The translations under genes were made by a program, and so were the position numbers. This document shows, piece after piece, positions 15,089 to 50,044 of a stretch of DNA of 50,044 bases. The first letter of the stretch is position 1; every line of letters begins with the position of its first letter. The stretch covers positions 1 through 50,044 of the forward strand of contig JBHICG010000020.1 of NCBI GenBank assembly GCA_046759445.1, in the 5' to 3' direction. Below the pieces are notes generated by a model that was not told the origin of the DNA, made no database searches, and saw nothing but the letters and a program-made list of their open reading frames with translations. The DNA comes from Candidatus Scalinduaceae bacterium. GTDB lineage: Bacteria; Planctomycetota; Brocadiia; Brocadiales; Scalinduaceae.

Positions 15089-16540
15089 TTAAGCATTGCC
15101 TCGTAAATACTTCATTGCGAATTTTCGCAGTAGTCTTCTCAATCCCAGGGTATCTGATTTTGTGTCCAATACGGCCAAAATAGGCTTTCTTAATAAAAAT
15201 ATGATTTTAAGTAATAGTTTCTCAAGAAACAATGGCATTCTTATTTTCGAAAAAAGTAGCCGTGCGTAAAAGAACGATTGCATTAATTCAAAATATTTTT
15301 TCATTTCTTTGTGTGACATGAAAACTTCTTTTAGAGACGGCGCTTCTAAATAGCCTGATACAGATTCAAGGTCGTCTAACAGTAAGCCATAGTCTAAACA
15401 TAACTGATGTATCCTGCTTTTTGGATATGGGTAAAAATAAAAACATTTGCCAAAATCCGGTTGCAACTCCATGTTTAAATTAAGTGTGTCTTTTGCCATT
15501 TCAGTTGTTTCAAATGGCAGACCAACGATGTTGAAGGAGAAGCTCTTGATACCGTATTTCTTAGTTATCTCAAAGGCATCTTTTATTTTTCTATTTGAAT
15601 GTCTTCGGTTCAAGATATTTCTTCTTAGCCATTCGTTTCCACTTTCTACTCCGAAATCAATGGATATGCATCCGCCATGCTTAAGATCCTTTGCAACCTG
15701 TTCGCCCATGGTTTCAACCCTCGCGTTGCACAAGAACGGCAAATCAATTTCTTTTTTATATACCTCGCAAAATCCAGATAACCATTTCTTGTTTAATGTG
15801 AATGTGTCATCGGCAAAAATTATCTTCTTTGTTCCCGGGTATAAAGACAGGTTGTTTTTGATTACATTGATTGAACGCTCAATGGAAGGAAAACGTACAT
15901 AATCTCCCTTATTTGGATATATCTCGCGAAATGCGTGATTACAGCAATAGTGGCAATTATATGGACAGCCCCTCGATAACATCATTGGAAAGCACTGTCC
16001 ATTGTCAGAAATTATTTTGTCATAATCAAACAGTGTATAGTCTGGTAGAGGCAGGACTTCTACACCTTGCAAAGGGACTACAGCGTTCTTCCCTATTCCA
16101 TCATTTGTTCTAAAGCAGAAGCTGGGAGTGGCCAGGTAATCATCGCCATTATCTAACCTTCGACATAGTTCTCTTAAAGGGGCTTCACCCTCTCCAAGAC
16201 ATATTCCATCTATCTCAGGAAAATCCTTAAACACTTCCTCTTTAACCAAAGTACAATGCACCCCCCCCGCGACCGTTAACATCTCAGATAAGTCAGCTAT
16301 TTCTAGAAACCGCCGCACATGTTTTTTTTGGTTAGTGGTAAAGGACAGGCCAACTACATCCAGTTTTTCTTCTTCTAAGAACTTTATCGCTTTATCAAAG
16401 TCGTCTTCAAATATCAAATGGTGTAAATAAACTTTATGATTTTCGATCTTTAGTGTTCCGATAAGAGACGCAAGGCCATGATGAAAACTCGGATAATAAC
16501 CTGTATTGAGGTCAAAGTATATAAAAGTTATTCTTGCCAC
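15089..16540 (-). CDS. B12-binding domain radical SAM protein
   Basis: GGVHCT, GEGE, SRGCPYNCHYC (CxxxCxxC), ADDTF, GVESG, GLPFET. Confidence 0.88.
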   Translation of the reverse strand: MARITFIYFDLNTGYYPSFHHGLASLIGTLKIENHKVYLHHLIFEDDFDKAIKFLEEEKLDVVGLSFTTNQKKHVRRFLEIADLSEMLTVAGGVHCTLVKEEVFKDFPEIDGICLGEGEAPLRELCRRLDNGDDYLATPSFCFRTNDGIGKNAVVPLQGVEVLPLPDYTLFDYDKIISDNGQCFPMMLSRGCPYNCHYCCNHAFREIYPNKGDYVRFPSIERSINVIKNNLSLYPGTKKIIFADDTFTLNKKWLSGFCEVYKKEIDLPFLCNARVETMGEQVAKDLKHGGCISIDFGVESGNEWLRRNILNRRHSNRKIKDAFEITKKYGIKSFSFNIVGLPFETTEMAKDTLNLNMELQPDFGKCFYFYPYPKSRIHQLCLDYGLLLDDLESVSGYLEAPSLKEVFMSHKEMKKYFELMQSFFYARLLFSKIRMPLFLEKLLLKIIFLLRKPILAVLDTKSDTLGLRRLLRKFAMKYLRGNA

Positions 16541-19121: not shown

Positions 19122-20249
19122 TTAGTCGCTTTTACCCTTTTTGCTTGATTCAAACCATTCCTTAATTAACTTCGCCCTTAATGACCCACGTTTTGACCGA
19201 TACAAATCCAAGTTGGTATAAAGTGTACATTTACGGCATATTTCAGGGAAATCCCCCTCCGCAAAGCGATATCTTAGCCTTTTGGTAGCTTCTGATGACC
19301 ACAACTCCAGAAAGTGTGATTCAAGTATATTGCCAATAATAAGTTCGCTTTGCGCATTGATGTCTCGGCAACCGCAAAGCCCTACCTTTCCATCCGCAAA
19401 AACTGTTGGCCCATCGTAGAGCAAGTAACACGGCTCTTTTTCAAGTATGCTCAAAGGTCTAATATGCATCCCGTCAAGCAGATCCTTCTGCCCAATCTCG
19501 CCCAGCCATGTATCAAAGTCTGTATTAAATTCTATCTCATGAGGGTATTCGCGTATGGCCTGATAATCAGGCAGTTCCAATGTTTTCTTCATAGACATGT
19601 TTGAACGAAAACTGATTTTAATACGAACAGGTCTCCCTGTATCGGCATTTATCTTCAACAATTGTGTTACGTTTTGATTGACTCTATGATATTCTTTGCT
19701 ACGGTAGATTGATTGATAAAGTTTTTCATCCCATGGCCCTGTACTTATATTTATGTCAGTAATACCTGATTGGAGCAATCCTTCTATTCCAACCTTATCA
19801 AGATTTATGCCATTTGTAATTGTTGTAATTTTCGTAATTTCTGACCGTGATCGTGCCACTTTAATACGTTCTATTAGTTTTGGATCGAGTAATGGGTCTC
19901 CAACACACGTATGTAGCCTAAGTTCTCCCCCCCCAATAGAGCAATAGTCGTCCAGGGCCTTGAAATAAACTGCATCTGACATAACTATCTTAGGACGGGT
20001 TTGAAACTTATAAGCACAAAAAATACACTTCGCATTACAAATATTCGTAGGTTCAATATGGAGATTCCAAGGCCGGACTTCAATATGCTGGAGATTTTGT
20101 AAAAATTCTAAATTAGAGACCCTATCAAGGTAATTAAAACGTTCCCTGAGCACCCGAATGACAGTCATCCAGAACTCAGGAGTGAGTACTTCTTTACGGC
20201 GATGGATTGCAAACAGAGTTATACGTTTGAAATTATTTCGTAGATTCAT
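19122..20249 (-). CDS. Radical SAM protein with SPASM/twitch domain
   Basis: CNAKCIFC, GDPLLD, C-terminal PC...DGKVGLCGC...IGN...CRKC. Confidence 0.85.
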   Translation of the reverse strand: MNLRNNFKRITLFAIHRRKEVLTPEFWMTVIRVLRERFNYLDRVSNLEFLQNLQHIEVRPWNLHIEPTNICNAKCIFCAYKFQTRPKIVMSDAVYFKALDDYCSIGGGELRLHTCVGDPLLDPKLIERIKVARSRSEITKITTITNGINLDKVGIEGLLQSGITDINISTGPWDEKLYQSIYRSKEYHRVNQNVTQLLKINADTGRPVRIKISFRSNMSMKKTLELPDYQAIREYPHEIEFNTDFDTWLGEIGQKDLLDGMHIRPLSILEKEPCYLLYDGPTVFADGKVGLCGCRDINAQSELIIGNILESHFLELWSSEATKRLRYRFAEGDFPEICRKCTLYTNLDLYRSKRGSLRAKLIKEWFESSKKGKSD

Positions 20250-25367: not shown

Positions 25368-26885
25368 TCAAGTTCTAATATAAGACTTTCTGTTTTTAAA
25401 ATAACACCAACTTCCCAAAAGAATCGCCATTATATCGAAACAAAGATGTTTAAAGTTTGGATGTTTACTCACTAACAGGGTTCTCCACCTTCTATACAAA
25501 AATTTTCTAAAATATTTGTATTGGAAAAAGTGCCTTGCCCGATTAGTATAAGAGGATTTGGAATATCTTTTTTCTAAATAGTCCCATACCTCTTTAAGTC
25601 TTGTTTCTGAAATTAGATTCTCTGTTTTCTTTATTCTCCCCACGTTAAAATCGTCGTACGTTTTATAATATGGACTCGAAGCAATGGATGATGCATATTT
25701 ATCGTACATATACGTTCCAGGCAAAGCAGTGGTATAAGATGCATTCATAAAATGTGGTTTAACTTTTTCTATTAGGTTAACTGACTCTGTTAATTCCGCT
25801 TCAGTCTCGGTTGGAGACCCTAACATGATATTAGCTTGGGCTGGAAGACCTATCTCATGACAAATATTATAGGCATTAATAATATCATCATAACTAAGCC
25901 CTTTACAGAAGACTTCTTCTCTTATTCTTGTGCTTCCTGCTTCAAAAGTCATAACAACACCTACACAACCAGCATTACGCATCTTTAATAATACGTCTTT
26001 CCTTGCTCTATTAATTCTTCCGTTCGCATGCCAGAGTATACTATTTAGTTTGCTCTGAATCATTAAATTACAAAATCTGGATGTCCAATCATAGTCATAC
26101 GAAAAGGTGTCATCGTTAATCCAAAGACCATTAACATCATACTTTCTTTTGAGTTCTGCTATTTCCGCAACAACATTTTCCGGAGATCTTTTTCTTGTTT
26201 TTTTCCCAAACATTAAATCAACTGTCGGTTGGCAAAATGTGCAATTGTATGGACACCCTCGAACAGTTATTAATAACAGGCTTGGACTACCAAGAGGATA
26301 ACCGGCTCTTCCACGTATTACATTTTCAGGCAAAAGCTCTCTATCTATAAAAGGAAGATCATCAAGATTATTTATATAATCTCCTTTCTCCGTGGTAATC
26401 AGTTTATTCTCTTTATCTAATAATGCAATGCCTTTTACATTTTCAAATGACGGCATGTTTAAGGATATATTTCTAACTAAATCAAGGATTGAAATTTCTC
26501 CTTCCCCTATTATACAGAAATCAACATGCTTGCTTTTCAATGTCTCTTGAGGACAAACTGTTGGATGAGGGCCACCTGCAACAATTGTAACTTTAGGAAA
26601 ATCCTTTTTTATACCCATTGCCACTTCTTCAGCTTTACCAGCAAACATTGTAGTTACACTCAGTCCTACAATATCAGGTTGAAACCCGAAAACTTCCTTT
26701 TGGACATAACTCACTTTGTCCTCAGTTGTTTTACCTTCAAGGCCAATAAGTTTTACTGCATAACCCTCCTTCTTTAGTACAGTTCCAATATACAGCAAGC
26801 CCATTGGTTCATTGTCCAATGGTTCTAAATAAACTAATAATATCCTCATATTATGCTTAGTTGTTTCAGCACTACACATACACAA
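25368..26885 (-). CDS. B12-binding domain radical SAM protein
   Basis: PMGLLYI, GGPHPT, GEGE, RGCPYNCTFC, DDTF, GSPTET. True start is probably MRILLV. Confidence 0.88.
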   Translation of the reverse strand: MCMCSAETTKHNMRILLVYLEPLDNEPMGLLYIGTVLKKEGYAVKLIGLEGKTTEDKVSYVQKEVFGFQPDIVGLSVTTMFAGKAEEVAMGIKKDFPKVTIVAGGPHPTVCPQETLKSKHVDFCIIGEGEISILDLVRNISLNMPSFENVKGIALLDKENKLITTEKGDYINNLDDLPFIDRELLPENVIRGRAGYPLGSPSLLLITVRGCPYNCTFCQPTVDLMFGKKTRKRSPENVVAEIAELKRKYDVNGLWINDDTFSYDYDWTSRFCNLMIQSKLNSILWHANGRINRARKDVLLKMRNAGCVGVVMTFEAGSTRIREEVFCKGLSYDDIINAYNICHEIGLPAQANIMLGSPTETEAELTESVNLIEKVKPHFMNASYTTALPGTYMYDKYASSIASSPYYKTYDDFNVGRIKKTENLISETRLKEVWDYLEKRYSKSSYTNRARHFFQYKYFRKFLYRRWRTLLVSKHPNFKHLCFDIMAILLGSWCYFKNRKSYIRT

Positions 26886-36002: not shown

Positions 36003-36848
36003 TCAAGTTGACTTCTTCCTGTTTTTCGCTGTTATAAGTGCATGTAACTTGCTTCTCTCGTCAAGACATCTTTGCACATTCATGATATTCCATACCAACC
36101 CCTTCAAGATCAAAGATGCCCTTCTAAAATCATTCAACACTATATTTTGAAGAACTCTACCAAAGTTTTTTAACACCAACATTAAAAACGTACTCGCTGT
36201 ATACCCTTCAATAATATTTATGAATTTCAACTCAATGTATATACGATTTTTATATGACATAAAATACTGAAAATCCGTACTATTTTTGATCGAGCTTGAA
36301 TTTGGAGCCTTTTGATTCTCAAAAATGTGTCCACCATCTACAAAAAAAGGAATTTTAAGTTTTTTTGCTTTAATGAAAAACTCTGTATCATCACCATAAA
36401 TACCAATATTTTCATCAAATAAATTGCCATTAAGGTTTTTAAGCACTTCTCGTTGCACTGCAAACACTGACGATGTATTGAGTGGCATATGTTCCCCATT
36501 TTCCCATTGTAGTTTGGGGAAATTAAACCCTGCGGATACTTGTTCTAAAAACCCTCGTAACATTCCTGACGTAAAGATCACATCTCCATCTATAAAAACT
36601 AATGTATCGCCTACACTCTCATTTATGCCGCGATTTCTGCTATAAGCAACATACAATCTATTCTTATTTCTAAGTATTTGTATTTTTCTGGCAAATTTTT
36701 GTCTCAATATCGTATATGTGTCATCATCTGAGCAATCATCTATCACAAGAATCTCTACGGCTTGAATTCTCTCTGACAAAACTTGCTCAATAAGTGGAAT
36801 GGTTAATCTCTTACTATTGTAAGTAGGTATAATGATCGAATATTTCAC
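36003..36848 (-). CDS. Glycosyltransferase family 2
   Basis: SIIIPTYN, IDDCSDD, SRNRG, FIDGD. Confidence 0.85.
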   Translation of the reverse strand: MKYSIIIPTYNSKRLTIPLIEQVLSERIQAVEILVIDDCSDDDTYTILRQKFARKIQILRNKNRLYVAYSRNRGINESVGDTLVFIDGDVIFTSGMLRGFLEQVSAGFNFPKLQWENGEHMPLNTSSVFAVQREVLKNLNGNLFDENIGIYGDDTEFFIKAKKLKIPFFVDGGHIFENQKAPNSSSIKNSTDFQYFMSYKNRIYIELKFINIIEGYTASTFLMLVLKNFGRVLQNIVLNDFRRASLILKGLVWNIMNVQRCLDERSKLHALITAKNRKKST

Positions 36849-37945
36849 TATACATTCCTTTGGAAAAAATGTGTTAGCCTTCCAATGTTATATCTCTTGA
36901 AACAAACAAAACATGTGTGAGTGCAATAACATTTATCAACTATTTCCCTTCGTCTATTGGCATCTTGACTGTTCCAAATCCCTTTAAAGTCATAATTATA
37001 GTCATGCAAGTTTCCGAGTGGTTGCATGAATTCGCAAAATGAAACATCAAGATTTGAATAAACCACTCCCATATCAGTGCCTGCTATACAATCCATAGTT
37101 CTCTTCTTATGCTTGACCGTTTTTAAACATGCTTTAAATCTGCTAACTGCTGTCACATGACCTATTATAGTTCTCACTATACCTGTTTTTTTTATTTGCT
37201 TTCTGGATCGTAAAAAATTCCCCCAATATATCTTGTAGAAGTCTTTGACATTTGTAGTTATTTTATTACAGAAATCCTCTCGGAGCGCTTCCTCTTCATC
37301 TCCCAAAACAGTATGAACCTGTATATTTATAGGAAGATTTGAATGTTTTACCGACCGCACCAATTGAAAAGCAAACGCCCCTCCTATCTCATTCCATATA
37401 AAATCCTTCATTACCTTTAAATACGGGAAGTTAATGCTATTAATTGTTGCGCCTAGTCCTGTGGAAAAATTTGGCCAAGGCTGTTCCAGCTCTTTTAGCT
37501 GGTAATACGTTCTCATTGCACTATCAAAACTTCCCTTTCTTCCTCTAATTTTATCATGAACATCCTCTGGCCCATCAATGGAAATTGAAACAGATATTTT
37601 CTTCTTAAAGTTTTTATTTTCCTGTAAAATTCTTTTTACTTTTTCAACGATTATCCGAGAATTACTACCATTAGTTGGTATCGCAATAGAATTAGCCCGT
37701 ATTTCTCTTACAATATCAACCACCTCTTTGTTCAAAAAAGGCTCTCCACCGGTGATTATTACATGATCCAAAGGTAATGGAAAATTTTGCATGATGAGTT
37801 TAATATCATTCGCCGAAAGATCTCCAATCGCGGAATTTAAATCTTCGGCATAAAAACAATGCTTACAACTCAAATTACACCTGTCAGTAATAAAAATAAT
37901 CAATCGTTTCGGCAGTTTGTTCTCAAAAGATAGTTTTGCGTTCAT
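36848..37945 (-). CDS. Radical SAM protein with SPASM/twitch-like C-terminus
   Basis: CNLSCKHC, TGGEPF, SIDG..HDKIRG, CIAG...CE...GNL...CYCTHTC. Confidence 0.85.
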   Translation of the reverse strand: MNAKLSFENKLPKRLIIFITDRCNLSCKHCFYAEDLNSAIGDLSANDIKLIMQNFPLPLDHVIITGGEPFLNKEVVDIVREIRANSIAIPTNGSNSRIIVEKVKRILQENKNFKKKISVSISIDGPEDVHDKIRGRKGSFDSAMRTYYQLKELEQPWPNFSTGLGATINSINFPYLKVMKDFIWNEIGGAFAFQLVRSVKHSNLPINIQVHTVLGDEEEALREDFCNKITTNVKDFYKIYWGNFLRSRKQIKKTGIVRTIIGHVTAVSRFKACLKTVKHKKRTMDCIAGTDMGVVYSNLDVSFCEFMQPLGNLHDYNYDFKGIWNSQDANRRREIVDKCYCTHTCFVCFKRYNIGRLTHFFQRNV

Positions 37946-42084: not shown

Positions 42085-42882
42085 TTACATATAAGTTTCC
42101 GGTACAACAACAACATCTCCAGGTTTTAGTATAATATCTAATGATTTATCACCTTTTCTTACCTTATTTAGATTAACCATTATAGTTTTCTCTTCTCCTT
42201 CTTCAACTCTGATAACCTTGATCCTATTTGGCGCTGCAAATTCTGTAAATCCACCTGCTTTGGCAACAGCTTCAAGCACACTTAAGTACTTGCCGAGTAT
42301 TGGTATTGCTCCTGATGTAGTTACTTCTCCAACGACAAAGACTTCTTTTTCCTTATGCCGCTCCATTAGCTGAATATCGAGCATTATGGTAACCTTTGGA
42401 TTTTTTATATAGCCATCCCTTAACCGTTCTTCCATAACTTTTTCCACTTCTTGAGTAGTTAATCCCTTTACATTTATACCTCCAATAAGTGGATAAGCAA
42501 GTATTCCTTCATCTGATACTCTTATACTCATGCTTAAGCCAGGTTCATCATAAATCTTAATGCCCAATATATCGTAACTATCAATTAAATATCTTTCTCT
42601 AAATTTAACATTAGTAATATTTTGATAATCAACCGCACTACTACTCTTTCTATATTCAGAACATCCAACTAAAGCAAAAAATAATAAACACGTTAGTAAA
42701 CCCCGTTGGAATTTCCCGCCCAGATGAATCCCCGTTCGCCCGCCTGCCATTTGTCGGGCAGGGACGGGCGTACGGAACATTAACACCCGTGAGAAAAAAC
42801 GGGCACTATCTAATTTTATCATCCCCCTGCTTACGCTCGATGCATTCCTACGGAGTAAATTTGAAACTAATTCTCTCAACAT
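42085..42882 (-). CDS. wza: Polysaccharide export lipoprotein (Wza/Poly_export plus SLBB)
   Basis: Lipobox LVGC, YPLIGGINVKGLT, VFVVGEV, AGGFTEFA, LKPGDVVVVP. Confidence 0.9.
   Translation of the reverse strand: MLRELVSNLLRRNASSVSRGMIKLDSARFFSRVLMFRTPVPARQMAGGRTGIHLGGKFQRGLLTCLLFFALVGCSEYRKSSSAVDYQNITNVKFRERYLIDSYDILGIKIYDEPGLSMSIRVSDEGILAYPLIGGINVKGLTTQEVEKVMEERLRDGYIKNPKVTIMLDIQLMERHKEKEVFVVGEVTTSGAIPILGKYLSVLEAVAKAGGFTEFAAPNRIKVIRVEEGEEKTIMVNLNKVRKGDKSLDIILKPGDVVVVPETYM
42701..42859. mobile_element. 159-bp MITE-like insertion in the wza signal-peptide region
   Basis: AGTAAA direct repeats at 42695-42700 and 42854-42859. Imperfect terminal inverted repeats CCCCGTTGGAAT / ATTCCTACGGAG. Internal nested palindromes. 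Confidence 0.65.
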
Positions 42883-42958
42883 TTTAATAATCTCGCTTTC
42901 TATAATAAAGTATGAAAAAATCCGAATAACCCAGCCGACGGCAGGCGGGGAATATCGA

Positions 42959-43000
42959 AATATCTTCCCGTTTGTGGGAAATATCTTCCCGTTTGTGGGA
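42959..43000. repeat. 21-bp tandem duplication
   Basis: AATATCTTCCCGTTTGTGGGA x2. Confidence 0.85.
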
Positions 43001-43804
43001 GTAGCATCTTGCCACCCAGATACGCTCGAACGTACTGCAATGTTTCACTGGTAAACGCCCGAATACCTATCTCCGAATGTATGCCTGTCGGGCTGATAAA
43101 TAGTTTGCCTGTGATGAATCCTTCAGACATAGAAGTCCCTCCTGAGTTACATTTTTTCAACAAAAACTAATTAACTTAACATTGTAACCCTATATATTTA
43201 GATTGCTTACGTTTTTTATAAACCAATTACTATATACTTAAGAAATTTCTAACATTAATATTGCAGACCGTACAATATCAACGATACCATGCGTTATAAG
43301 TGTGCAACTATTAATAAACTCCATTAGAGAATAGGCTTAATACCGTTTAAGTTATCCTGTTCTTGAAAGTTTAACAATCGTGGAAAGACTAGTTTTGACG
43401 AAAATAGTTCATTCGCAAAAGTAATGCCGACTATTTCTTAATATTTTTTTGTGACGTGTTGATGGTGATTTGCAAACGTATCATGTCATCTCACATTTAT
43501 TTAAATGTAGATAAACCATAGTAAATACTTTGTTTAGCATTTTCTAGTTAACCATAACCTTATACCGAAATCATGCCTATGGCAGATTCTCGCCGAGACT
43601 CACAATTTCTCCCTGCCTAGCGGCAGGCAGGTGTCTACTTGCTACTTTCCAATTTCGGAACGAATTGGAACTAAGTTCAAAGATGGTGTAATGTTGAAGA
43701 AATATACATTTGTACAGATATTATACGTTTTTTAAATTAGGGTTTTGACTATACTTATAGTGCTTTTTGAGTACTTTACTCTGGTCAAGACCCTTGACAA
43801 CTTA

Positions 43805-43833
43805 TTGACATTTACGTTCTTATATGATATAGT
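43805..43833 (+). promoter_or_regulatory. Near-consensus sigma70 promoter for the beta-barrel/nucleotidyltransferase operon
   Basis: TTGACA (43805-43810), 17 nt, TG-extended TATAGT (43828-43833). Confidence 0.65.
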
Positions 43834-43927
43834 AACTATCAATATTGCGAACATTCGTCTTTAAGAATGCTTCTATTACATAGAAGTTCAATCGCGAATT
43901 AGTACGAATATTGCGCAATTACTTGAA

Positions 43928-45379
43928 ATGCGTTCGGAGCATATTAAGTTTATGTATCTAGTCCACTCTATTATAAAAACATGTGTTTTTTGTGTAATCG
44001 TGTTCATAATTTCAGGGATTTCGTCTGCTCAAGAAAATCAGACGACGGAGAGTGAAAATAGTTTATTCAGAAATAATATTGTTGAATTGTTAGGGAATAT
44101 TCCTAAATATTCCAAAAATCTAAACATTGGCCCGTTAAGATTATATCCCTCATTTGAGATATCGGAGGCCTTTGATGATAATGTCTTCGATGCAGCAGAT
44201 CCAGACGGTGTAACCGGTGATTTCTACACTACCTATAAACCTGCCATTTCACTTGTATTACCAATAAAGAAAAAAAAACATTTCCTTGAATTAAATTATA
44301 GCTCTGAAATTCACGAGTACACACGTGATTATTCACGCACTAATCAAGTAACAAATCAAGAACAAGACCATGTTAACCAATACTTTGGCGGCTCAGTAAA
44401 CCTCAATTTTCATAAAGGGTTCAGCGTCCATCTGTCTAACCAGACTTCCATGATTAGAGTACCTAGCAGTTTTACACGGCGTACGAATCCTCAAGTTCAA
44501 TTTCTAGGAGAACCTCCTGAGGAAGGTGAAGAACCAGAAGTCCTTGAACAGTTTGGATTTAATACATTTTCACCTCGAAGAGACCTGACTTACAACGTAG
44601 CATCGATCGTAATAAACCTGCCAGACTTTTTTGATAAGCTTGATTTCGATATTCATTATTCCAATCGAGATATCTCTTACAAAGGTAGGAAATTCAATGC
44701 AAGTGAACGTAACGAAGATCTTTTTGGAGGCGCTCTCATAATCAAACCCTTACCAAAAATCAGGATAACAACAGGCTTTGATTATGGGATCATAAAATAT
44801 GATTCTGCTTTCAGGAATGATTCTACCGTTCAAAGGATCCCCTTCAATATTTCCTGGCAACCCACGGACAAAAGCAATTTTTTTCTTGATACAAGTTACA
44901 ATACCAGAGATTATGGCCGCAGAAGTATTTTTGAGAATTTTCATGGTTATGATGCCACGTTAGGATACAGGTTTAACGTTGCAGAGAGAGATGAATTGAC
45001 AATAAAATTCGAAAGGAGTTTGAAAGAAGAACAATTTCAAACAGATCCGCTGATTTCATCTTTAGGAGATAATAATCCATATTTCTTTACACAACTCAAT
45101 GTAGATTACGTCCATAAATTTCACAGAAATATTTCCTTTATATTTTCACCTGCCTTTCAAACATTGAGGTTTCTTGAAAAGGATATAGATCTTATGTCTG
45201 GAGTCATTAAACGCGAGAAGGTAGACTTGATAAGAGTTAAAGTAACGGCTAGATATGATACACGCCGGGAATGGCTCTTTGGTGAAATTTCGTATAGCTA
45301 TCAGGACCGTGATAGTAATTTTGAAGATGGAGATTTGGTAAAAAATGTAGGACAAATCAGTGTGGGAATAAATTTTTGA
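43928..45379 (+). CDS. Outer-membrane beta-barrel protein of the type found in EPS loci
   Basis: Signal peptide (ISSA-QE), FDDNVF motif, alternating amphipathic strands, C-terminal Phe (VGINF). Confidence 0.8.
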   Translation: MRSEHIKFMYLVHSIIKTCVFCVIVFIISGISSAQENQTTESENSLFRNNIVELLGNIPKYSKNLNIGPLRLYPSFEISEAFDDNVFDAADPDGVTGDFYTTYKPAISLVLPIKKKKHFLELNYSSEIHEYTRDYSRTNQVTNQEQDHVNQYFGGSVNLNFHKGFSVHLSNQTSMIRVPSSFTRRTNPQVQFLGEPPEEGEEPEVLEQFGFNTFSPRRDLTYNVASIVINLPDFFDKLDFDIHYSNRDISYKGRKFNASERNEDLFGGALIIKPLPKIRITTGFDYGIIKYDSAFRNDSTVQRIPFNISWQPTDKSNFFLDTSYNTRDYGRRSIFENFHGYDATLGYRFNVAERDELTIKFERSLKEEQFQTDPLISSLGDNNPYFFTQLNVDYVHKFHRNISFIFSPAFQTLRFLEKDIDLMSGVIKREKVDLIRVKVTARYDTRREWLFGEISYSYQDRDSNFEDGDLVKNVGQISVGINF

Positions 45380-46491
45380 TTTTAATAAATATGGGAGACC
45401 CACTCAGGGCTTTTTATACACTAGCGGTTTTAAATCCACAAGAGGAGGATGTTCTAACTCTCCGTGCCTCTCATGTCGACTGGGACACCGTAGTTAAGAT
45501 TTCCTTTGAATTAAATTCTTCATATATATTTTATACAAACATAAAACGCTTTGGACTCGAGGCTTGCTTCAATTCCACAAACATCAAACGACTTCAAGCT
45601 GAAAAAGAATCGGCGATTTTCAATAATCTAATCCAGATAAAACATTTACATGAGATTTCAGGATTATTGCAAGCAAAAAACATTAAATTTATTCCGTTGA
45701 AAGGGCTATCTCTTATCACTGACACATATCCGGATATCGGGATGCGGATCAGTGCAGATCTGGACATCCTCATCCATCCTACTAATTTTGACAAATGTGC
45801 TGAAGTATTAAAGAAATCTTCATACAAATTTGAGCCCTCCCTAACCCGTGGCGTGATGACCAATCACGGCCAAGAGTGCATTGCGGTGTCTCAAAATAAT
45901 CTTGGGATAGATATACATTACAGATTTTTTGCATGGTATGAGGAAAAATATATTTTCAAAATCGATATTGCAAAGTTTTATGAAAATACCGTGAACAAAC
46001 ACTGGAAAGGCTATGATCTTGCTTATATGAAGAAAGAAGACGAATTTTATTACCTTCTGATGTGTATCTTTAGGTACCGCTTATGTACTTTCCGATACTA
46101 CCTTGATGCGGATGCAATCCTTAAGGTACATGGGGCAAATTTTGATTGGACTTTGGTAAAATCATATCTGTGGAGCAGCTCACTTAAACAATACTGGAAG
46201 ATACTCCTCAATTTCATGCGAGATAGACTGAAGACACCCATTCCCTATGAGTTGGCGCTACCCGAAGACGATGTATCCGAGAAAGCTTATTTATTCTTAC
46301 TTGACAAGCGCATTATGAAGCCCTGCACTAACAAGACTAAAACCCAGCTATTCTATCTTCACGCTGCTCAAAAATTCGTAGATAAGTTGGCGCTTGTGTT
46401 GTTATTTCTGAAATGGCAGCTCTTCAAACGTTTTGGATGTTTTAGGAGCTTTTTTATTGCCCATAATAATCCTAGACGCAATGGAACCTAA
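45376..46491 (+). CDS. Nucleotidyltransferase family protein (NTP_transf_5-like)
   Basis: IPLKGLSL, YPDIGMRISADLDILI, IDIHY. Start may be ATG 45391. Confidence 0.85.
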   Translation: MILINMGDPLRAFYTLAVLNPQEEDVLTLRASHVDWDTVVKISFELNSSYIFYTNIKRFGLEACFNSTNIKRLQAEKESAIFNNLIQIKHLHEISGLLQAKNIKFIPLKGLSLITDTYPDIGMRISADLDILIHPTNFDKCAEVLKKSSYKFEPSLTRGVMTNHGQECIAVSQNNLGIDIHYRFFAWYEEKYIFKIDIAKFYENTVNKHWKGYDLAYMKKEDEFYYLLMCIFRYRLCTFRYYLDADAILKVHGANFDWTLVKSYLWSSSLKQYWKILLNFMRDRLKTPIPYELALPEDDVSEKAYLFLLDKRIMKPCTNKTKTQLFYLHAAQKFVDKLALVLLFLKWQLFKRFGCFRSFFIAHNNPRRNGT

Positions 46492-46677
46492 TCATGCCTT
46501 CGGTATGACGCCGCTGGTTCAATCTTGTAGATTGAACCTTGCGTTTCCCTCTCCTCCTGTGGAGATTGCGTCACAAGGTCATTCTGAGCCCCCACTTCTT
46601 GCCCCTGCGCTTTCTTGCCGAAAGTAGGCTCTGTAAGAGCGAAAGCAAGATGCTGGGGCAGTGGGGGCGAAGAATCT
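46491..46677. repeat. Cluster of palindromes between convergent genes, including a triple-nested REP-like element (46578-46677)
   Basis: TCATGCC-ttcg-GTATGA; GGTTCAATCT-tgt-AGATTGAACC; GTCATTCTGAG[CCCCCAC...GTGGGGG]CGAAGAATCT. Confidence 0.75.
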
Positions 46678-46697
46678 CTTTATTTGTGTTTCGGCAT

Positions 46698-47576
46698 TCA
46701 ACGGCCTTGCCCCTGCAACCCTTCTATAAGCTCACATGCCCTATCCAAATTCCTCATTTCCAGGGTATAACACCTCGCCCTCTGTGCAAGCTTTATGCAT
46801 ATCTTTAGACCTCCGTCAGGAAATAGTTTTTGGTTCCAGCCGTTCTGCATTAGGCCAATCACGGCTTGAGCGGGAGCAAGTGGTTTTAATTCGGTTTTAC
46901 CTTTAGTGGTGTACCTGAGGAAAATAATCCGATCCACTCTCCATCTGGCGTCTTTAGGCATGATGGCGCCGTCTTGAGGTATAAAGTACGTCCATCTATT
47001 GGTAGTAGTACCATCATCATAACGGAAGCGATAGACTGAGAAATCCTTGACTACCTCTTGGCTAAGGGGACGTGACCATGTTCACGCAAAGATGTGCCTC
47101 TGGTAGGGAACCACCTCCAGAGTCTCATGATGGATGACACTCACCTCGTCTGTAAGATACCTATAACCGCAATTCATGAGCCCCAGGGTAAGGGTGGACT
47201 TCCCACTTCCAGACTCCCCCGGCAAGAGGATGGCCCTGCCGTTTTTTACTAACGCGCCGGAATGGAATATTAAATAATCCCTCACCTGCTCGCAACAGCT
47301 TTCTCTAATTTGGTGAACTAGAAGTGGGCGTAACTGAGGATCTTCTGCTCGATGGTAGATTGTACGTCCATCCTTCTCTATGTGCGTATACTTCCTCTTC
47401 TTCATCACCCTGAATCTTACTGCAGGTGGTTCCCCGTTAGCCGGTAATGCCAGTGCCGAGGTAAAATCACAAAATTCCTTTAAGAAGGATTTATGGTTGG
47501 TGGTTATTTCTATCGAAAGGGAGAGAACCTTCATATTGTGCGTTGAAAGTTCAGTGGCACGAGTCGCCTTCTTCAC
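46698..47576 (-). pseudogene. HprK-related P-loop kinase interrupted by one in-frame TGA (47082-47084)
   Basis: HSGAL, Walker A GESGSGKST, YLTDE. The same frame continues 40 codons past the TGA into ORF 46698-46961 (LAPAQAVIGLMQN...LDRACELI). GTG start overlaps the upstream stop and has a GGAGG RBS. Confidence 0.8.
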
Positions 47577-49153
47577 TTTAATGCCTCCTCAAGAAGGCCT
47601 TTCCCCTGGAATTCCTCGATCATATTAGTAACATCCCTTTCCACCTGAACAGTGTCAGCCGTTAGAACATCGACGATTTCCTTCGTTATATCCTTAACAG
47701 TATGGTTCCCGTCACATAGGTCCCAGATAACGATACCCAAAAGGTTCAGGTGATGCACGTTGTGATTCCTTGAGTCGTAAATGACTATCTCATCATCAAC
47801 ATCTCCACTGACAATGTCCCCCCTTTTCCTCGGTTTTCCTTTCATTTTCTTTCCTCCATTTCTTTTTATAAGCCCGGTATATGGATTATATCGGCATCGC
47901 GGGTTTTTAGATAATAAATCCCCTGTAGTGGTCTGTGCCAGGGCCCTGCAGTCAAAACACCCGTAGCGCAGCTCACAGTCCCTGCAGGTCTCTACCTCCT
48001 CCAGGGTTATCTGCCAGAGCCTCTGAAGGGCCCGCCTCTGTACTATCTCCTCCAGCCTCATCTCAGGAAATTTGCCTACAGACATCTGCCTTGCAAATAT
48101 GCAAGGATATACGTCTCCTTCACTACTTATGGCTATCTTGCCCTTCCAGCAGGTACCCCGGGTAAACCCCTTGTCACAGGCCCCCTGCCCTTCTTCAGAC
48201 GATGATGACGGCTTAAACGGGGTTACCTCAGTACAAACGTCTCTTCCCATGAGGGCAGATTCCGCCTCTCCCCTGCCAGTCGGCCTCACATAGTCCCATT
48301 CAATCTCCTTGTCCTTCAAGCCCAATCCCTTCAGGAACTCTACTGTATATGTAAGGTGGTACATGTTCTCCCTCATGAGGACTATGGCCACCCTTACAGG
48401 TATGTTATGGGCTAGGATGGCCCTTATACCCTGCGCCGTCTGACGGAAACTCCCGGTCCTCCCGGTAATGGTGTCATGCGTCCTGGGGTCGCAGGAGTAA
48501 AACGACAATGCCACCCTTACACCTGATAAGGCCCACTGTTGTAAAAGGCAGTCTTCAAGTCGGGTAGCGTTGGTAAAGACCTCTATCTCGCTGTACCGGC
48601 ATGACCGCGCATATTCTATAAGCTCCATGAGTCCCGGGTATAGGGTAGGTTCGCCTCCTGTGAACTGGACCTTCTTAGCGCCAAGCCGTGCACATTCAGA
48701 GAGTATGTCCTTCCACTGTTCAAGGGAAATATGTTCCCTCTCCATTGATGGAAGATGTTTAGGGTGAGGGTGGTTAGTTCCTGCCCCTTCATAGCAGTAT
48801 GCACAGAAAAGGTTACAGGACTTTGTGAGTTCCAGCCACACATAATCAAGACCAACCGGCCCTGACGCGTAAGACAAGTTTTGAATAGTTTCCTTCGAGA
48901 ACTCCTTGTTACTACTCCAGCTATCAGATAGTCCAGTAAGTGCAGGATGCCTTGCTAAATAGCTCCTGAGAACCTTGAGAGTATCTTCTTTAGATTTGCA
49001 GGACTGGTCTTCATCGAGCCAACCCTCAATGAGCTCAGCCATCAGAGGGTTTACAGAATAGACCTCTCCATTCTCAAGGTCATACAGGGCAGTATTGACG
49101 GGCCCCTTTACGGCGACGATATGGCTGCTTGTAAGGAAGGCTCCGTAACCCAT
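47573..49153 (-). CDS. Radical SAM/SPASM peptide maturase fused to a C-terminal PqqD/RRE domain
   Basis: CNLFCAYC, FTGGEP, SPASM CWKG...GDVYPC...CRDCELRYGCFDCRA...C. The last 90 aa are PqqD-like (EIVIYD..HHLN..IWDLCDG..DV..GLL). The N-terminal ALYDLENGEVYSVN segment is also RRE-like. Confidence 0.9.
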   Translation of the reverse strand: MGYGAFLTSSHIVAVKGPVNTALYDLENGEVYSVNPLMAELIEGWLDEDQSCKSKEDTLKVLRSYLARHPALTGLSDSWSSNKEFSKETIQNLSYASGPVGLDYVWLELTKSCNLFCAYCYEGAGTNHPHPKHLPSMEREHISLEQWKDILSECARLGAKKVQFTGGEPTLYPGLMELIEYARSCRYSEIEVFTNATRLEDCLLQQWALSGVRVALSFYSCDPRTHDTITGRTGSFRQTAQGIRAILAHNIPVRVAIVLMRENMYHLTYTVEFLKGLGLKDKEIEWDYVRPTGRGEAESALMGRDVCTEVTPFKPSSSSEEGQGACDKGFTRGTCWKGKIAISSEGDVYPCIFARQMSVGKFPEMRLEEIVQRRALQRLWQITLEEVETCRDCELRYGCFDCRALAQTTTGDLLSKNPRCRYNPYTGLIKRNGGKKMKGKPRKRGDIVSGDVDDEIVIYDSRNHNVHHLNLLGIVIWDLCDGNHTVKDITKEIVDVLTADTVQVERDVTNMIEEFQGKGLLEEALK

Positions 49154-49188
49154 AGGAATTCACCATAAACTTTAAGACACACACAAGC

Positions 49189-49368
49189 CTAGCTAGGCAG
49201 GCATTGAGCAGGGTTACATTTAGGTAAACACCTTTTCGCTGCATGGGCCTCGTCACTCAATGCAATTATAGTAGTGACTATGGGTATGGTGTATACACCC
49301 AGCTTCAACAACCTGCGGCGTGTCATTCGCTTCTGTTCTTCAGGACTATCGCTTTGTTTATCCAGCAT
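49189..49368 (-). CDS. Putative RiPP precursor, 59 aa, Tat-like leader plus Cys-x-Pro core
   Basis: Hand translation MLDKQSDSPEEQKRMTRRRLLKLGVYTIPIVTTIIALSDEAHAAKRCLPKCNPAQCLPS*. AGGAGG lies 6 nt upstream, and the ORF ends 35 nt before the rSAM start. It is just under the apparent 60-aa cutoff of the ORF track. Confidence 0.85.
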   Translation of the reverse strand: MLDKQSDSPEEQKRMTRRRLLKLGVYTIPIVTTIIALSDEAHAAKRCLPKCNPAQCLPS

Positions 49369-49447
49369 TTTGCGCCTCCTGCTCTCGGCTTATACATAAT
49401 AATAACATGTATTGCATTTTGGTAAATATTACAACTTGCAGAATAAA

Positions 49448-49531
49448 GGTGGATTCGCTTCGCTTAATCCACCTTACATATAACAAATTATGTTACGGAG
49501 GGTGGATTAAGGACGATAGGACGAATCCACC
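49448..49531. repeat. Inverted pair of REP palindromes (REPIN-like)
   Basis: GGTGGATTcgcttcgcttAATCCACC and GGTGGATTaaggacgataggacgAATCCACC in opposite orientation. Confidence 0.7.
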
Positions 49532-49615
49532 AAAAATATATTGATTCGACTAATTAAAATTCGTTTGAGTCATTTCTTCACTTTGTTCAGGACGGCGTCT
49601 GAACCCTTCGCCGCC

Positions 49616-49748
49616 TGTCATTCTGACCCCGCATCCTTGCTTCCGCAAGGAAGCAGCGGGGGAAGAATCTCTTTTTAGCGGGCCTTAGTCCCCCCACTTC
49701 TTGCCCCGTTGCTTTCTTGCTGAAAGCAAGATGCGGGGCAGTGGGGGG
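49616..49748. repeat. Two nested REP-like palindromes lacking the 22-nt inner insert
   Basis: TGTCATTCTGA[CCCCGC...GCGGGG]GAAGAATCT (49616-49670) and CCCCCACTTCTTGCCCC...GGGGCAGTGGGGG (49690-49748). Confidence 0.75.
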
Positions 49749-49835
49749 ATTTATTCACTATTGACCATATTTTCGGAGTAAACTCAATAACCATTTTATT
49801 TAGGTATCATATTCTTATTCTCTCGATAAAGTGTC

Positions 49836-50044
49836 ATGAGTAACTCACACTCACCTGATAAAGACTATGACCTCGTCTCAAAAGGCGCTGAACTATGCCA
49901 ATCCTGCGGACTTTGCTGTAAGGGAATGCTGCACGACCGTATAGACCTTGAAATTGATGAGACCGAACTAGTAAGCCAACTGGGACTAACCCCTTACCAG
50001 AAGAAAGTTGATTACGATGCTTTCGATTTGCCATGTCCATGTTT
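49836..50044 (+). CDS. YkgJ family (CxxCxxCC) cysteine-cluster protein, partial
   Basis: Hand translation MSNSHSPDKDYDLVSKGAELCQSCGLCCKGMLHD...FDLPCPC. Open to the window edge and not in the ORF track. Confidence 0.8.
   Translation, partial: MSNSHSPDKDYDLVSKGAELCQSCGLCCKGMLHDRIDLEIDETELVSQLGLTPYQKKVDYDAFDLPCPC

Follow-up and report, generated by a model that had tools for sequence, protein, structure and literature searches.

A conserved peptide gene with a twin-arginine-like leader beside a radical SAM/SPASM/PqqD enzyme in a Scalinduaceae bacterium: a candidate RiPP-type system

The window considered here is the whole 50,044-nucleotide stretch (positions 1 to 50,044, forward strand) of contig JBHICG010000020.1 of GenBank assembly GCA_046759445.1, from a Candidatus Scalinduaceae bacterium (Planctomycetota; Brocadiales). 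Near its right-hand end, on the minus strand, lies an open reading frame (ORF) of 59 codons; a gene for a radical S-adenosylmethionine (SAM)/SPASM enzyme with a PqqD domain at its C-terminus starts 35 nt after the stop codon of the ORF, on the same strand. The ORF (translation MLDKQSDSPEEQKRMTRRRLLKLGVYTIPIVTTIIALSDEAHAAKRCLPKCNPAQCLPS in the ORF listing of the window) is the precursor of a previously undescribed system of the ribosomally made and post-translationally modified peptide (RiPP) type: residues 1–43 are the leader and residues 44–59 a variable core, and the peptide, to judge from the sequence, is presumably modified. The features by which RiPP precursors are generally recognized occur together at this locus – a short gene beside an enzyme, a conserved leader with a variable core, and a RiPP recognition element (RRE) domain encoded in the cluster. 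Features of the precursor gene and of the region just upstream are as follows.

49189..49368, minus strand: precursor peptide gene, 59 codons and a TAG stop (from the ORF listing, homologues and alignment)
49375..49380, minus strand: ribosome-binding site AGGAGG, 6-nt spacer before the ATG (read from the sequence)
49399..49426, minus strand: promoter-like site TTTACC/16-nt spacer/TATTAT with a TG before the −10, just upstream of the ribosome-binding site (a consensus match only)
49303..49323, minus strand: twin-arginine motif T16-R-R-R-L-L-K22; R17 and R18 invariant in 19/19 and 34/34 aligned relatives
49255..49302, minus strand: uncharged stretch L23–S38, 16 residues, candidate h-region; mean Kyte-Doolittle value 1.85
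49276..49293, minus strand: Y26-T-I-P-I-V31, proposed docking motif for PqqD (RRE); Y26, I28 and P29 invariant in 19/19
49240..49248, minus strand: A41-H-A43, candidate signal peptidase I site; A41 invariant in 19/19; cleavage would leave AKRC...
49192..49239, minus strand: AKRCLPKCNPAQCLPS, the predicted core of 16 residues (three CxP units, Ser at the end); R46, C47, P49 and K50 invariant in 13 close relatives

A preliminary description of this stretch, made from the letters alone, had proposed a 59-residue ORF preceded by AGGAGG. Both are present, with the addition that the ORF is on the minus strand (ATG at 49368, TAG at 49189–49191). The same description had made the case for the ORF depend on its conservation, and the ORF is conserved: a word-indexed search returned 12 other proteins of 55–84 aa with 52–88% identity, and a GAAGGAGG-type ribosome-binding site precedes the start codon in all seven related locus copies (7/7). 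Sigma-70-like sites are not enriched around the precursor (two seen against a shuffle mean of 4.6), which is weak evidence. The window peptide belongs to no NCBIfam or Pfam family – the family is new to both, small and unnamed – and the Protein Atlas gave leads only: MauA light chain (0.90), Rieske Tat signal (0.87) and Cxxx-repeat radical SAM target (0.86).

One reason for caution is the 3′ end of the ORF, which might mark it as a chance reading frame over a palindromic intergenic element. The last codons had been likened to a repeat at 43612, and correctly so: the 10-mer CCTGCCTAGC occurs at both places (43612–43621, plus strand; 49192–49201, minus strand), two or more matches being found in none of 100 shuffles, and a terminator-like hairpin overlaps the precursor stop codon. 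What the two places share is no more than a segment of two small hairpins. The 12-nt palindrome across the stop codon, GCCTAGCTAGGC, occurs once in the window, and with only the 10-mer in common a repeat artefact was rejected as a ground for doubting the gene. The 10-mer is no threat to the ORF, because the C-terminal codons vary among homologues while the terminal Ser/Thr stays. Given 12 close and approximately 90 distant protein homologues, together with conservation of both ribosome-binding site and synteny, the idea of a spurious ORF is effectively refuted, and the 59 codons are almost certainly a real precursor gene.

Alignment of 13 close relatives (the window copy included) shows a nearly invariant leader and a variable core: invariant leader positions are T16, R17, R18, R19, L20, L21, K22, L23, G24, Y26, I28, P29, T32, T33 and A41, whereas the core has only R46, C47, P49 and K50. 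The C-terminal residue is Ser or Thr in 17 of 17 complete close relatives. An uncharged stretch of 12–20 residues is found in 18 of 19 relatives; stretches of 15–16 residues have mean Kyte-Doolittle values of 1.4–2.0 and positive charges before them. The twin-arginine motif, hydrophobic stretch, YTIPIV, AHA and a 16-mer with three C-x-P units are all present as first described. The positions that the preliminary description had singled out for a check of conservation (RR, YxxP, CxP and the terminal Ser, here Ser/Thr) are all kept, small-x-small is kept as well, and neither RR nor the first Ala of A-x-A, variability of which would have counted against the proposal, varies among the aligned relatives listed above.

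The leader extends well beyond the close relatives. When 1.84 billion cluster representatives were searched with a profile of 19 precursors, 48 proteins scored E≤0.001, and a second search gave 61. The family comprises approximately 100 related small proteins, all annotated 'hypothetical protein', with few taxon names among them (Myxococcales, Kofleriaceae, Planctomycetales, Proteobacteria). No Pfam or NCBIfam family covers the group, and none of the 61 proteins from the second search has a precomputed Pfam domain. About 30 of the first 48, plus more of the second search, carry the same leader followed by 3–9 CxPxx pentapeptide units, mostly without a terminal Ser. Other arrangements were also seen among proteins P0187, P0188, P0191, P0204 and P0210–P0218: in one subtype the CxP core is followed by a conserved ...KRLKRDIAPIRxALELLAQL tail, and another has a Gly/Ser/Asn-rich linker before ...SCNPxACxPC.... 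From these sequences the same leader appears to be reused with several cargo types.

Motif counts were made on 102 collected family sequences, of which 89 were fully scored for the spacing between RR and Tyr. The pattern RR.[FGAVML][LITMVF], which we take to be that of TatP, is found in 102 of 102 (the earliest match in P0144 precedes the leader), and [YW]xxP follows RR by exactly 9 residues in 88 of 89. A-x-[AGS] comes after the Tyr in 89 of the 99 relatives that have the Tyr motif. By a first-match rule it lies 17–18 residues after the Tyr in 45 of 89 and at 13 in 24 of 89, the latter being close relatives with A-L-S, A-S-S or A-S-G; aligned close copies with a match at 13 have a second site (AHA, ALA or ALG) at 17–18. 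A lipoprotein signal was considered for the wider family, some cores of which begin ...A-S-C, and was rejected: the window copy has K-R before the first Cys and no lipobox (judged by eye).

The genes that neighbor the precursor in the window are listed below.

47573..49153, minus strand: radical SAM/SPASM enzyme with fused C-terminal PqqD, 526 aa (Radical_SAM 1e-22, SPASM 3.2e-08, PqqD 4.4e-12)
47591..47791, minus strand: PqqD (RRE) domain, enzyme residues 455–521 (Pfam), 55% identical to a stand-alone PqqD of the type-2 loci described below
46698..47576, minus strand: HPr-kinase-like gene, relative of HprK-related kinase A, with an in-frame TGA at 47082–47084
45376..46491, plus strand: NTP_transf_5 nucleotidyltransferase (Pfam 1.1e-30), convergent with the cassette
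49836..50042, plus strand: divergent ORF cut by the window end, with a literal C-x-x-C-x-x-C-C string and no Pfam or NCBIfam match

The 526-aa enzyme reaches no NCBIfam equivalog cut-off, its best matches including PqqE, StsB and AlbA, and the GTG start of the kinase gene overlaps the stop of the radical SAM gene by 4 nt. Two copies of a GC-rich, hairpin-forming intergenic repeat (46578–46690 and 49617–49750; common segments 88–94% identical) lie on either side of the precursor–radical SAM–kinase block. An Rfam scan of 42800–50044 returned only two sub-threshold matches to miRNA families, both over this repeat and taken as chance.

Related loci were obtained by aligning 23 homologues of the enzyme and scanning genome contigs with the resulting profile, which gave 48 loci. 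Full-length relatives of the enzyme are present in two (L001, a Planctomycetes metagenome-assembled genome (MAG), 54%; L002, a Brocadiales MAG, 57%), and six Planctomycetota loci (L011, L015, L017, L018, L019, L035) matched only its PqqD part. When the 13-peptide profile was run against 11,686 stop-to-stop ORFs from the 48 loci and the window, precursor matches at E<1e-4 were found only in the window and in seven of these eight Planctomycetota loci; the contig of the eighth, L017, ends before the point at which the precursor would lie.

The loci fall into two architectures, defined with Pfam, NCBIfam and tblastn. Type 1 (the window, L001 and L002) comprises the precursor, the radical SAM/SPASM/PqqD enzyme, the kinase, sometimes a Cys-cluster protein, and NTP_transf_5; in L001 and L002, too, the precursor is directly upstream of the enzyme. 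Type 2 (L011, L015, L018, L019 and L035) comprises an AAA_22 ATPase, an HD domain protein, an 85-aa PqqD, the kinase, sometimes a Cys-cluster protein, the precursor and NTP_transf_5, with the precursor approximately 1–2 kb downstream of the stand-alone PqqD; a radical SAM enzyme is absent. The leader of type-2 precursors is the same, but their core lacks Cys and runs from an acidic to a basic part, ending G-L-S. A CxP core with a radical SAM enzyme and a Cys-free core with PqqD alone is the rule in 8 of 8 loci, of which the window, L001 and L002 make up the CxP side, the distant CxP relatives being known as sequences without genomic context. Such loci amount to a natural experiment: one leader, different cores, and enzyme sets that match the cores.

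Between the two types identity is 55–61% for PqqD (over 64 residues), 44–46% for the kinase and 36% for the transferase; on these sequences PqqD is the best-kept protein, in parallel with the conserved leader. A kinase homologue is present in all eight related loci and in the window (that of L017 is cut by the contig end). The cut-offs of the HPr-rel-A system are not reached by the kinases of the relatives (112.4–126.1 bits against 200), by the halves of the window kinase (67.5 and 39.4 bits to TIGR04352, cut-off 200) or by the stand-alone PqqDs (27.3–29.2 bits against 35, TIGR04353); the best NCBIfam matches of the PqqD proteins include lasso PqqD chaperones, all below cut-off. By these scores the kinases and PqqDs are relatives, not members, of the HPr-rel-A system.

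Other genes accompany the cassette. The AAA_22 ATPase (226 bits to the model of the XrtA/PEP-CTERM-associated ATPase, cut-off 324.5) and an HD_5 protein precede it in L011, L015, L017, L019, L035 and L002. Glycosyltransferase and methyltransferase genes lie downstream in L001 and L002. Envelope-glycan genes are thus the usual company of the cassette.

We propose a model of four steps, in the first of which the PqqD (RRE) domain that ends the radical SAM/SPASM enzyme would bind the leader at L-L-K-L-G-V-Y-x-I-P-x-V, as lasso B1 proteins bind YxxPxL. Docking of the RRE on the YxxP region is probable. The likeness of YTIPIV to the lasso motif, to which the preliminary description had drawn attention, appears apt. 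In lasso leaders YxxPxL spans −17 to −12 (PMC10368454); here, with numbering from the putative A-x-A site, Y-x-x-P-x-[IV] occupies −18 to −13 in the window copy and −17 to −12 in many relatives, with Ile or Val, not Leu, in the last position. In the bsf lasso cluster the B1 RRE that binds the leader is also needed by the cluster's kinase (PMC10368454).

The complex was modeled, as the preliminary description had suggested. The PqqD domain (residues 436–526) with the precursor scored 0.36 in three of three runs, against 0.04 for the best of three controls, with at least 88% agreement of contacts between runs and a predicted local distance difference test (pLDDT) value of at least 57 for the partner. 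The pass is a weak one: the score mark is reached by 116 of 157 solved complexes and by 2 of 215 mismatched pairs, scores of 0.60 or less contain only 18 of the 157 solved complexes and both of the passing mismatches, and no interface was given. We take the modeled complex as weak support for docking, and the pass may reflect likeness to solved RRE–leader complexes.

A further indication comes from Cys-cluster ORFs of three related loci (L019, 3611–4414, with a weak match to Pfam CxxCxxCC; L011, 8375–8980; L002, 9945–10463), which end in a leader-like tail. The tail keeps ...K-M-x-V-Y-S-x-P-x-V/I-x-T..., without the RR pair, the A-x-A site or a core. Retention of YSxP without RR suggests that it is YxxP by itself that docks and that RR has another role, although the tails could instead be decaying copies. 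In P0140, P0143, P0144 and P0148 the same kind of Cys-cluster ORF continues in frame into a whole precursor. For the window, the divergent ORF that begins at 49836 was tried as the Cys-cluster protein and rejected, BLASTP finding no similarity to the L019 or P0144 proteins (E of 25 and 5.7).

In the second step the radical SAM/SPASM enzyme would modify the peptide, presumably at the invariant R-C-x-P-K and at further CxP cysteines, with thioether-type cross-links the most likely outcome. If, on the other hand, the product were an unmodified, exported, Cys-rich peptide (a metal binder, for example), then adjacency to the radical SAM gene would be without functional meaning. CxP-rich cores do resemble metal-binding or keratin-like Cys-Pro repeats, with compositional matches to keratin (Keratin_B2_2) in 7 of 34 relatives; one of the 34 weakly matches TIGR04117, 'Cxxx repeat radical SAM target' (E 0.002). 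However, the gene order with its 35-nt gap is kept in 3 of 3 type-1 loci, CxP cores and the radical SAM enzyme go together in 8 of 8 loci, and a peptide-binding PqqD domain is always present: we regard an unmodified product as very improbable.

The third step, which would apply to relatives with intact genes, is proposed by analogy: the HPr-kinase-like enzyme would phosphorylate the terminal Ser/Thr and NTP_transf_5 may add a sugar. In the lasso peptides paeninodin and pseudomycoidin the C-terminal Ser receives a phosphate from an HPr-kinase homologue, and the subsequent attachment of hexose requires an 'uncharacterised nucleotidyltransferase' (PMC6993621, PMC8498205); genes of these two kinds flank the Ser-terminated precursors here. 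In the window the TGA at 47082–47084 splits the kinase gene into ORFs of 164 and 87 aa in the same frame; its position aligns with W, S or Y in five relatives, right before an invariant Trp, and it may reflect a nonsense mutation, an error of sequencing or recoding. The window NTP_transf_5 was considered as the enzyme of the cassette, but it is only 23% identical to the L002 enzyme, whereas type-1 and type-2 enzymes share 38% identity with each other, and a cassette-type query had no tblastn match in the window. It is a distant paralogue of the cassette type, and that it belongs to the system is doubtful. Its start is overlapped by 4 nt by an outer-membrane beta-barrel gene (43928–45379, plus strand; weak EpsL and BBP2_2 matches), which suggests that this gene is part of the glycan locus rather than of the peptide cassette. 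With the kinase interrupted and no cassette-type transferase seen, the kinase/transferase step may be lost in this genome, or its genes may lie beyond the window end.

The glycan/exopolysaccharide locus itself occupies approximately 40 kb of the minus strand (2101–42882). Among its products are a Wzz/tyrosine-kinase-like protein, a Poly_export protein, two priming transferases (Bac_transf) and numerous glycosyl- and methyltransferases, and its radical SAM genes include two with B12-binding domains (15089–16540 and 25368–26885), a second radical SAM/SPASM gene (19122–20249) and a further radical SAM gene (36848–37945). Upstream of the Poly_export gene, in intergenic space, is an exact tandem duplication of a 21-nt unit, GAAATATCTTCCCGTTTGTGG (42957–42998).

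The fourth step concerns export. The leader proposed to dock on PqqD would also be a signal peptide for twin-arginine translocation (Tat): the finished peptide would leave through Tat, and signal peptidase I would cut after A-H-A43 to release the 16-mer. The proposal draws on motifs. The window sequence has three features of a Tat signal – T-R-R-R-L-L-K, a 16-residue uncharged h-region, and A-H-A at 41–43 – and in sequence the leader has the full three-part Tat-like layout of a positive n-region with RR-x-L-L-K, an uncharged stretch of 12–20 residues and small-x-small. Among 34 wider relatives there are weak matches to TIGR02811, 'formate dehydrogenase region TAT target' (5/34; best E 0.019), and to the Rieske Tat-signal family UCR_Fe-S_N (1/34; E 0.1). 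RiPP systems normally need a leader protease and an exporter of their own; with Tat and signal peptidase I in use, neither would be needed. A dedicated transporter and protease had been reported missing from the window, and this is borne out: Pfam searches of 39 window ORFs (32 of at least 120 aa and seven in the last 7 kb) gave no match to an ABC transporter, a peptidase or a component of Tat, and Pfam searches of 65 ORFs in the eight related loci found only a non-conserved M54 peptidase (in L001) and no conserved protease or transporter. A Brocadiales genome does encode TatA/B, TatC and signal peptidase I (PMC2881027).

Several observations weigh against this model. Curated Tat-signal models (which we take to be Pfam TAT_signal and NCBIfam TIGR01409) match none of 13 close relatives (NCBIfam, E≤10) and none of 34 wider ones (Pfam/NCBIfam, E≤1), an absence that counts only weakly since HMMER filters drop most matches above E of approximately 0.1. 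Signal peptides are usually far less conserved in sequence than the hydrophobic segment is here; the high conservation of this h-region points to recognition by a protein, which could alone explain conservation of RR and A-x-A. In P0011 there is a Glu inside the stretch, in L011 only 12 uncharged residues precede an Arg, and the c-region of the window copy is acidic (S-D-E). A-x-[AGS] is absent from 10 of the 99 relatives with the Tyr motif, and the Pro from 2 of 102. The leader-like tails, at the C-termini of cytoplasmic-looking Cys-cluster ORFs, cannot be N-terminal signals. To these are added the in-frame stop in the window kinase gene, the low identity of the window transferase to that of L002, the weak complex score with its missing interface, and the three-locus basis of the CxP side of the tie.

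Much of this would be expected if the leader never left the cytoplasm as a signal: RRxLLK...YxxP...AxA would then be a surface recognized by PqqD, by the kinase and by a leader protease from an unlinked gene, its resemblance to a Tat signal would be accidental, and any export would use machinery encoded elsewhere. Conservation in excess of that of signal peptides, the fixed 9-residue spacing of RR and Tyr, co-conservation of PqqD and leader, the lack of a curated Tat-signal model for any scanned member, the Glu of P0011, the leader-like tails and the match to the lasso register all fit such a role. Against it, the three-part layout of a signal peptide, with small-x-small at a constant distance, is kept across three core types and several phyla; the tails keep YSxP and lose RR, which suggests that RR serves something besides docking; and no protease or transporter is conserved in nine loci. 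We consider a purely cytoplasmic leader somewhat unlikely.

The charge and hydrophobicity of the leader (an uncharged stretch of 15–16 residues, its mean Kyte-Doolittle value in the range given above, with positive charges before it) would also suit a general secretion (Sec) signal, or an uncleaved anchor that tethers the peptide with its core outside, and in the bufferins there is an example of RiPP precursors with Sec signal peptides (PMC11626156). The invariant RR of RR-x-L-L-K is not needed for Sec, however, and the conserved A-x-A site is contrary to an uncleaved anchor. The modifying enzymes depend on SAM or ATP and so act in the cytoplasm before export, which fits post-translational Tat better, and Sec is stated to be poorly suited to bulky or cross-linked peptides (PMC11626156). 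A Sec signal or anchor is accordingly improbable. Tat export with cleavage by signal peptidase, as suggested by the leader motifs, we hold tentatively and at slightly under an even chance; the four-step model as a whole (docking, radical SAM chemistry, terminal Ser, Tat) is evenly balanced between being right and wrong.

A wider reading, possible but somewhat less likely than the export step, is that the locus represents a class of RiPPs, the first in which the leader is a working twin-arginine signal: PqqD/RRE would keep hold of the signal, much as a Tat proofreading chaperone does, until the core is finished, whereupon the peptide, which may be bulky, would pass to Tat and signal peptidase I. 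On this speculative reading the radical SAM enzyme would cross-link the CxP cysteines, and kinase and transferase would decorate the terminal Ser, while the RRE holds the leader; and, just as conjecturally, a single kind of leader–RRE pair would handle three or more sorts of core – CxP repeats, acidic/basic cores that end GLS, and hybrids such as that of the window.

If this reading is true, a leader that is both export signal and docking site would show how modification is timed against export, and confirmation would reveal a new way for bacteria to export modified peptides. Tat carries folded cargo, and a twin-arginine leader would thus solve the poor fit of bulky peptides to Sec. Full-text literature searches, with subscription journals mostly outside their reach, turned up neither a natural RiPP with a Tat signal nor a paper on the HPr-rel-A cassette; the precursor is a candidate substrate for the orphan PqqD/HPr-kinase-like/NTP_transf_5 cassette outside lasso clusters. 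In Brocadiales the product could be delivered into the anammoxosome, in the membrane of which Tat has been predicted (PMC2881027); alternatively, given the neighboring glycan genes, it could be a phospho-glycosylated envelope peptide. The only shown use by RiPPs of a general export route in the native host, according to the bufferin reports, is that of the Sec-dependent bufferins (PMC11626156, PMC12452194).

Among known systems, the tailoring modules of lasso clusters (paeninodin, pseudomycoidin and bsf) are alike in having a PqqD-type RRE, an HPr-kinase-like gene, NTP_transf_5 (here in the relatives) and a precursor that ends in Ser, and the present leader has Y-x-x-P-x-[IV] approximately 17–18 residues before its putative cleavage site. 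The present system is nevertheless not a lasso system, because there is no cyclase (Asn-synthetase-like C protein) and no B2 protease (Pfam; window and eight loci), and neither Thr nor Ile at −2, where the residue is H, L, N, W or Y. Its leader also has RR-x-L-L-K and a hydrophobic stretch, and the type-1 RRE is fused to a radical SAM/SPASM enzyme: it resembles a lasso tailoring module, with its RRE, kinase and transferase, that has been coupled to a radical SAM/SPASM maturase.

Sactipeptides, ranthipeptides, PqqE/PqqD and the TIGR04117 targets share with it the Radical_SAM, SPASM and PqqD domains and a short Cys-repeat precursor directly upstream. The system described here differs from these in reaching no equivalog cut-off, in its C-terminal PqqD, in the CxPxx repeat and in a leader that resembles a signal peptide. 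Sactipeptides and ranthipeptides are defined by thioether bridges from Cys sulfur to carbon, made by a radical SAM/SPASM enzyme; here the class of the enzyme is known from sequence.

Bufferins and oxazolins are alike in having Cys-bearing precursors and no dedicated exporter or protease, and in both an N-terminal Sec signal replaces the classical leader. Bufferin pathways depend on Sec and on MNIO (DUF692) enzymes with DUF2063 partners, and modification of bufferins does not need the signal peptide; their authors call Sec-signal RiPPs rare and bulky or cyclised peptides a poor fit to Sec (PMC11626156, PMC12452194). By Pfam, neither MNIO (DUF692) nor DUF2063 is present in the window ORFs or the eight loci. 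Instead of these there is a twin-arginine motif, a radical SAM/SPASM enzyme and a probable docking motif inside the signal-like region.

The proposed order of events has a counterpart in the Tat proofreading chaperones (TorD, DmsD and NapD), cytoplasmic proteins that bind a twin-arginine signal until the cargo is finished. Compared with these there is no insertion of a cofactor; the candidate binder is an RRE of the PqqD fold, and the cargo is a peptide of 16–46 residues.

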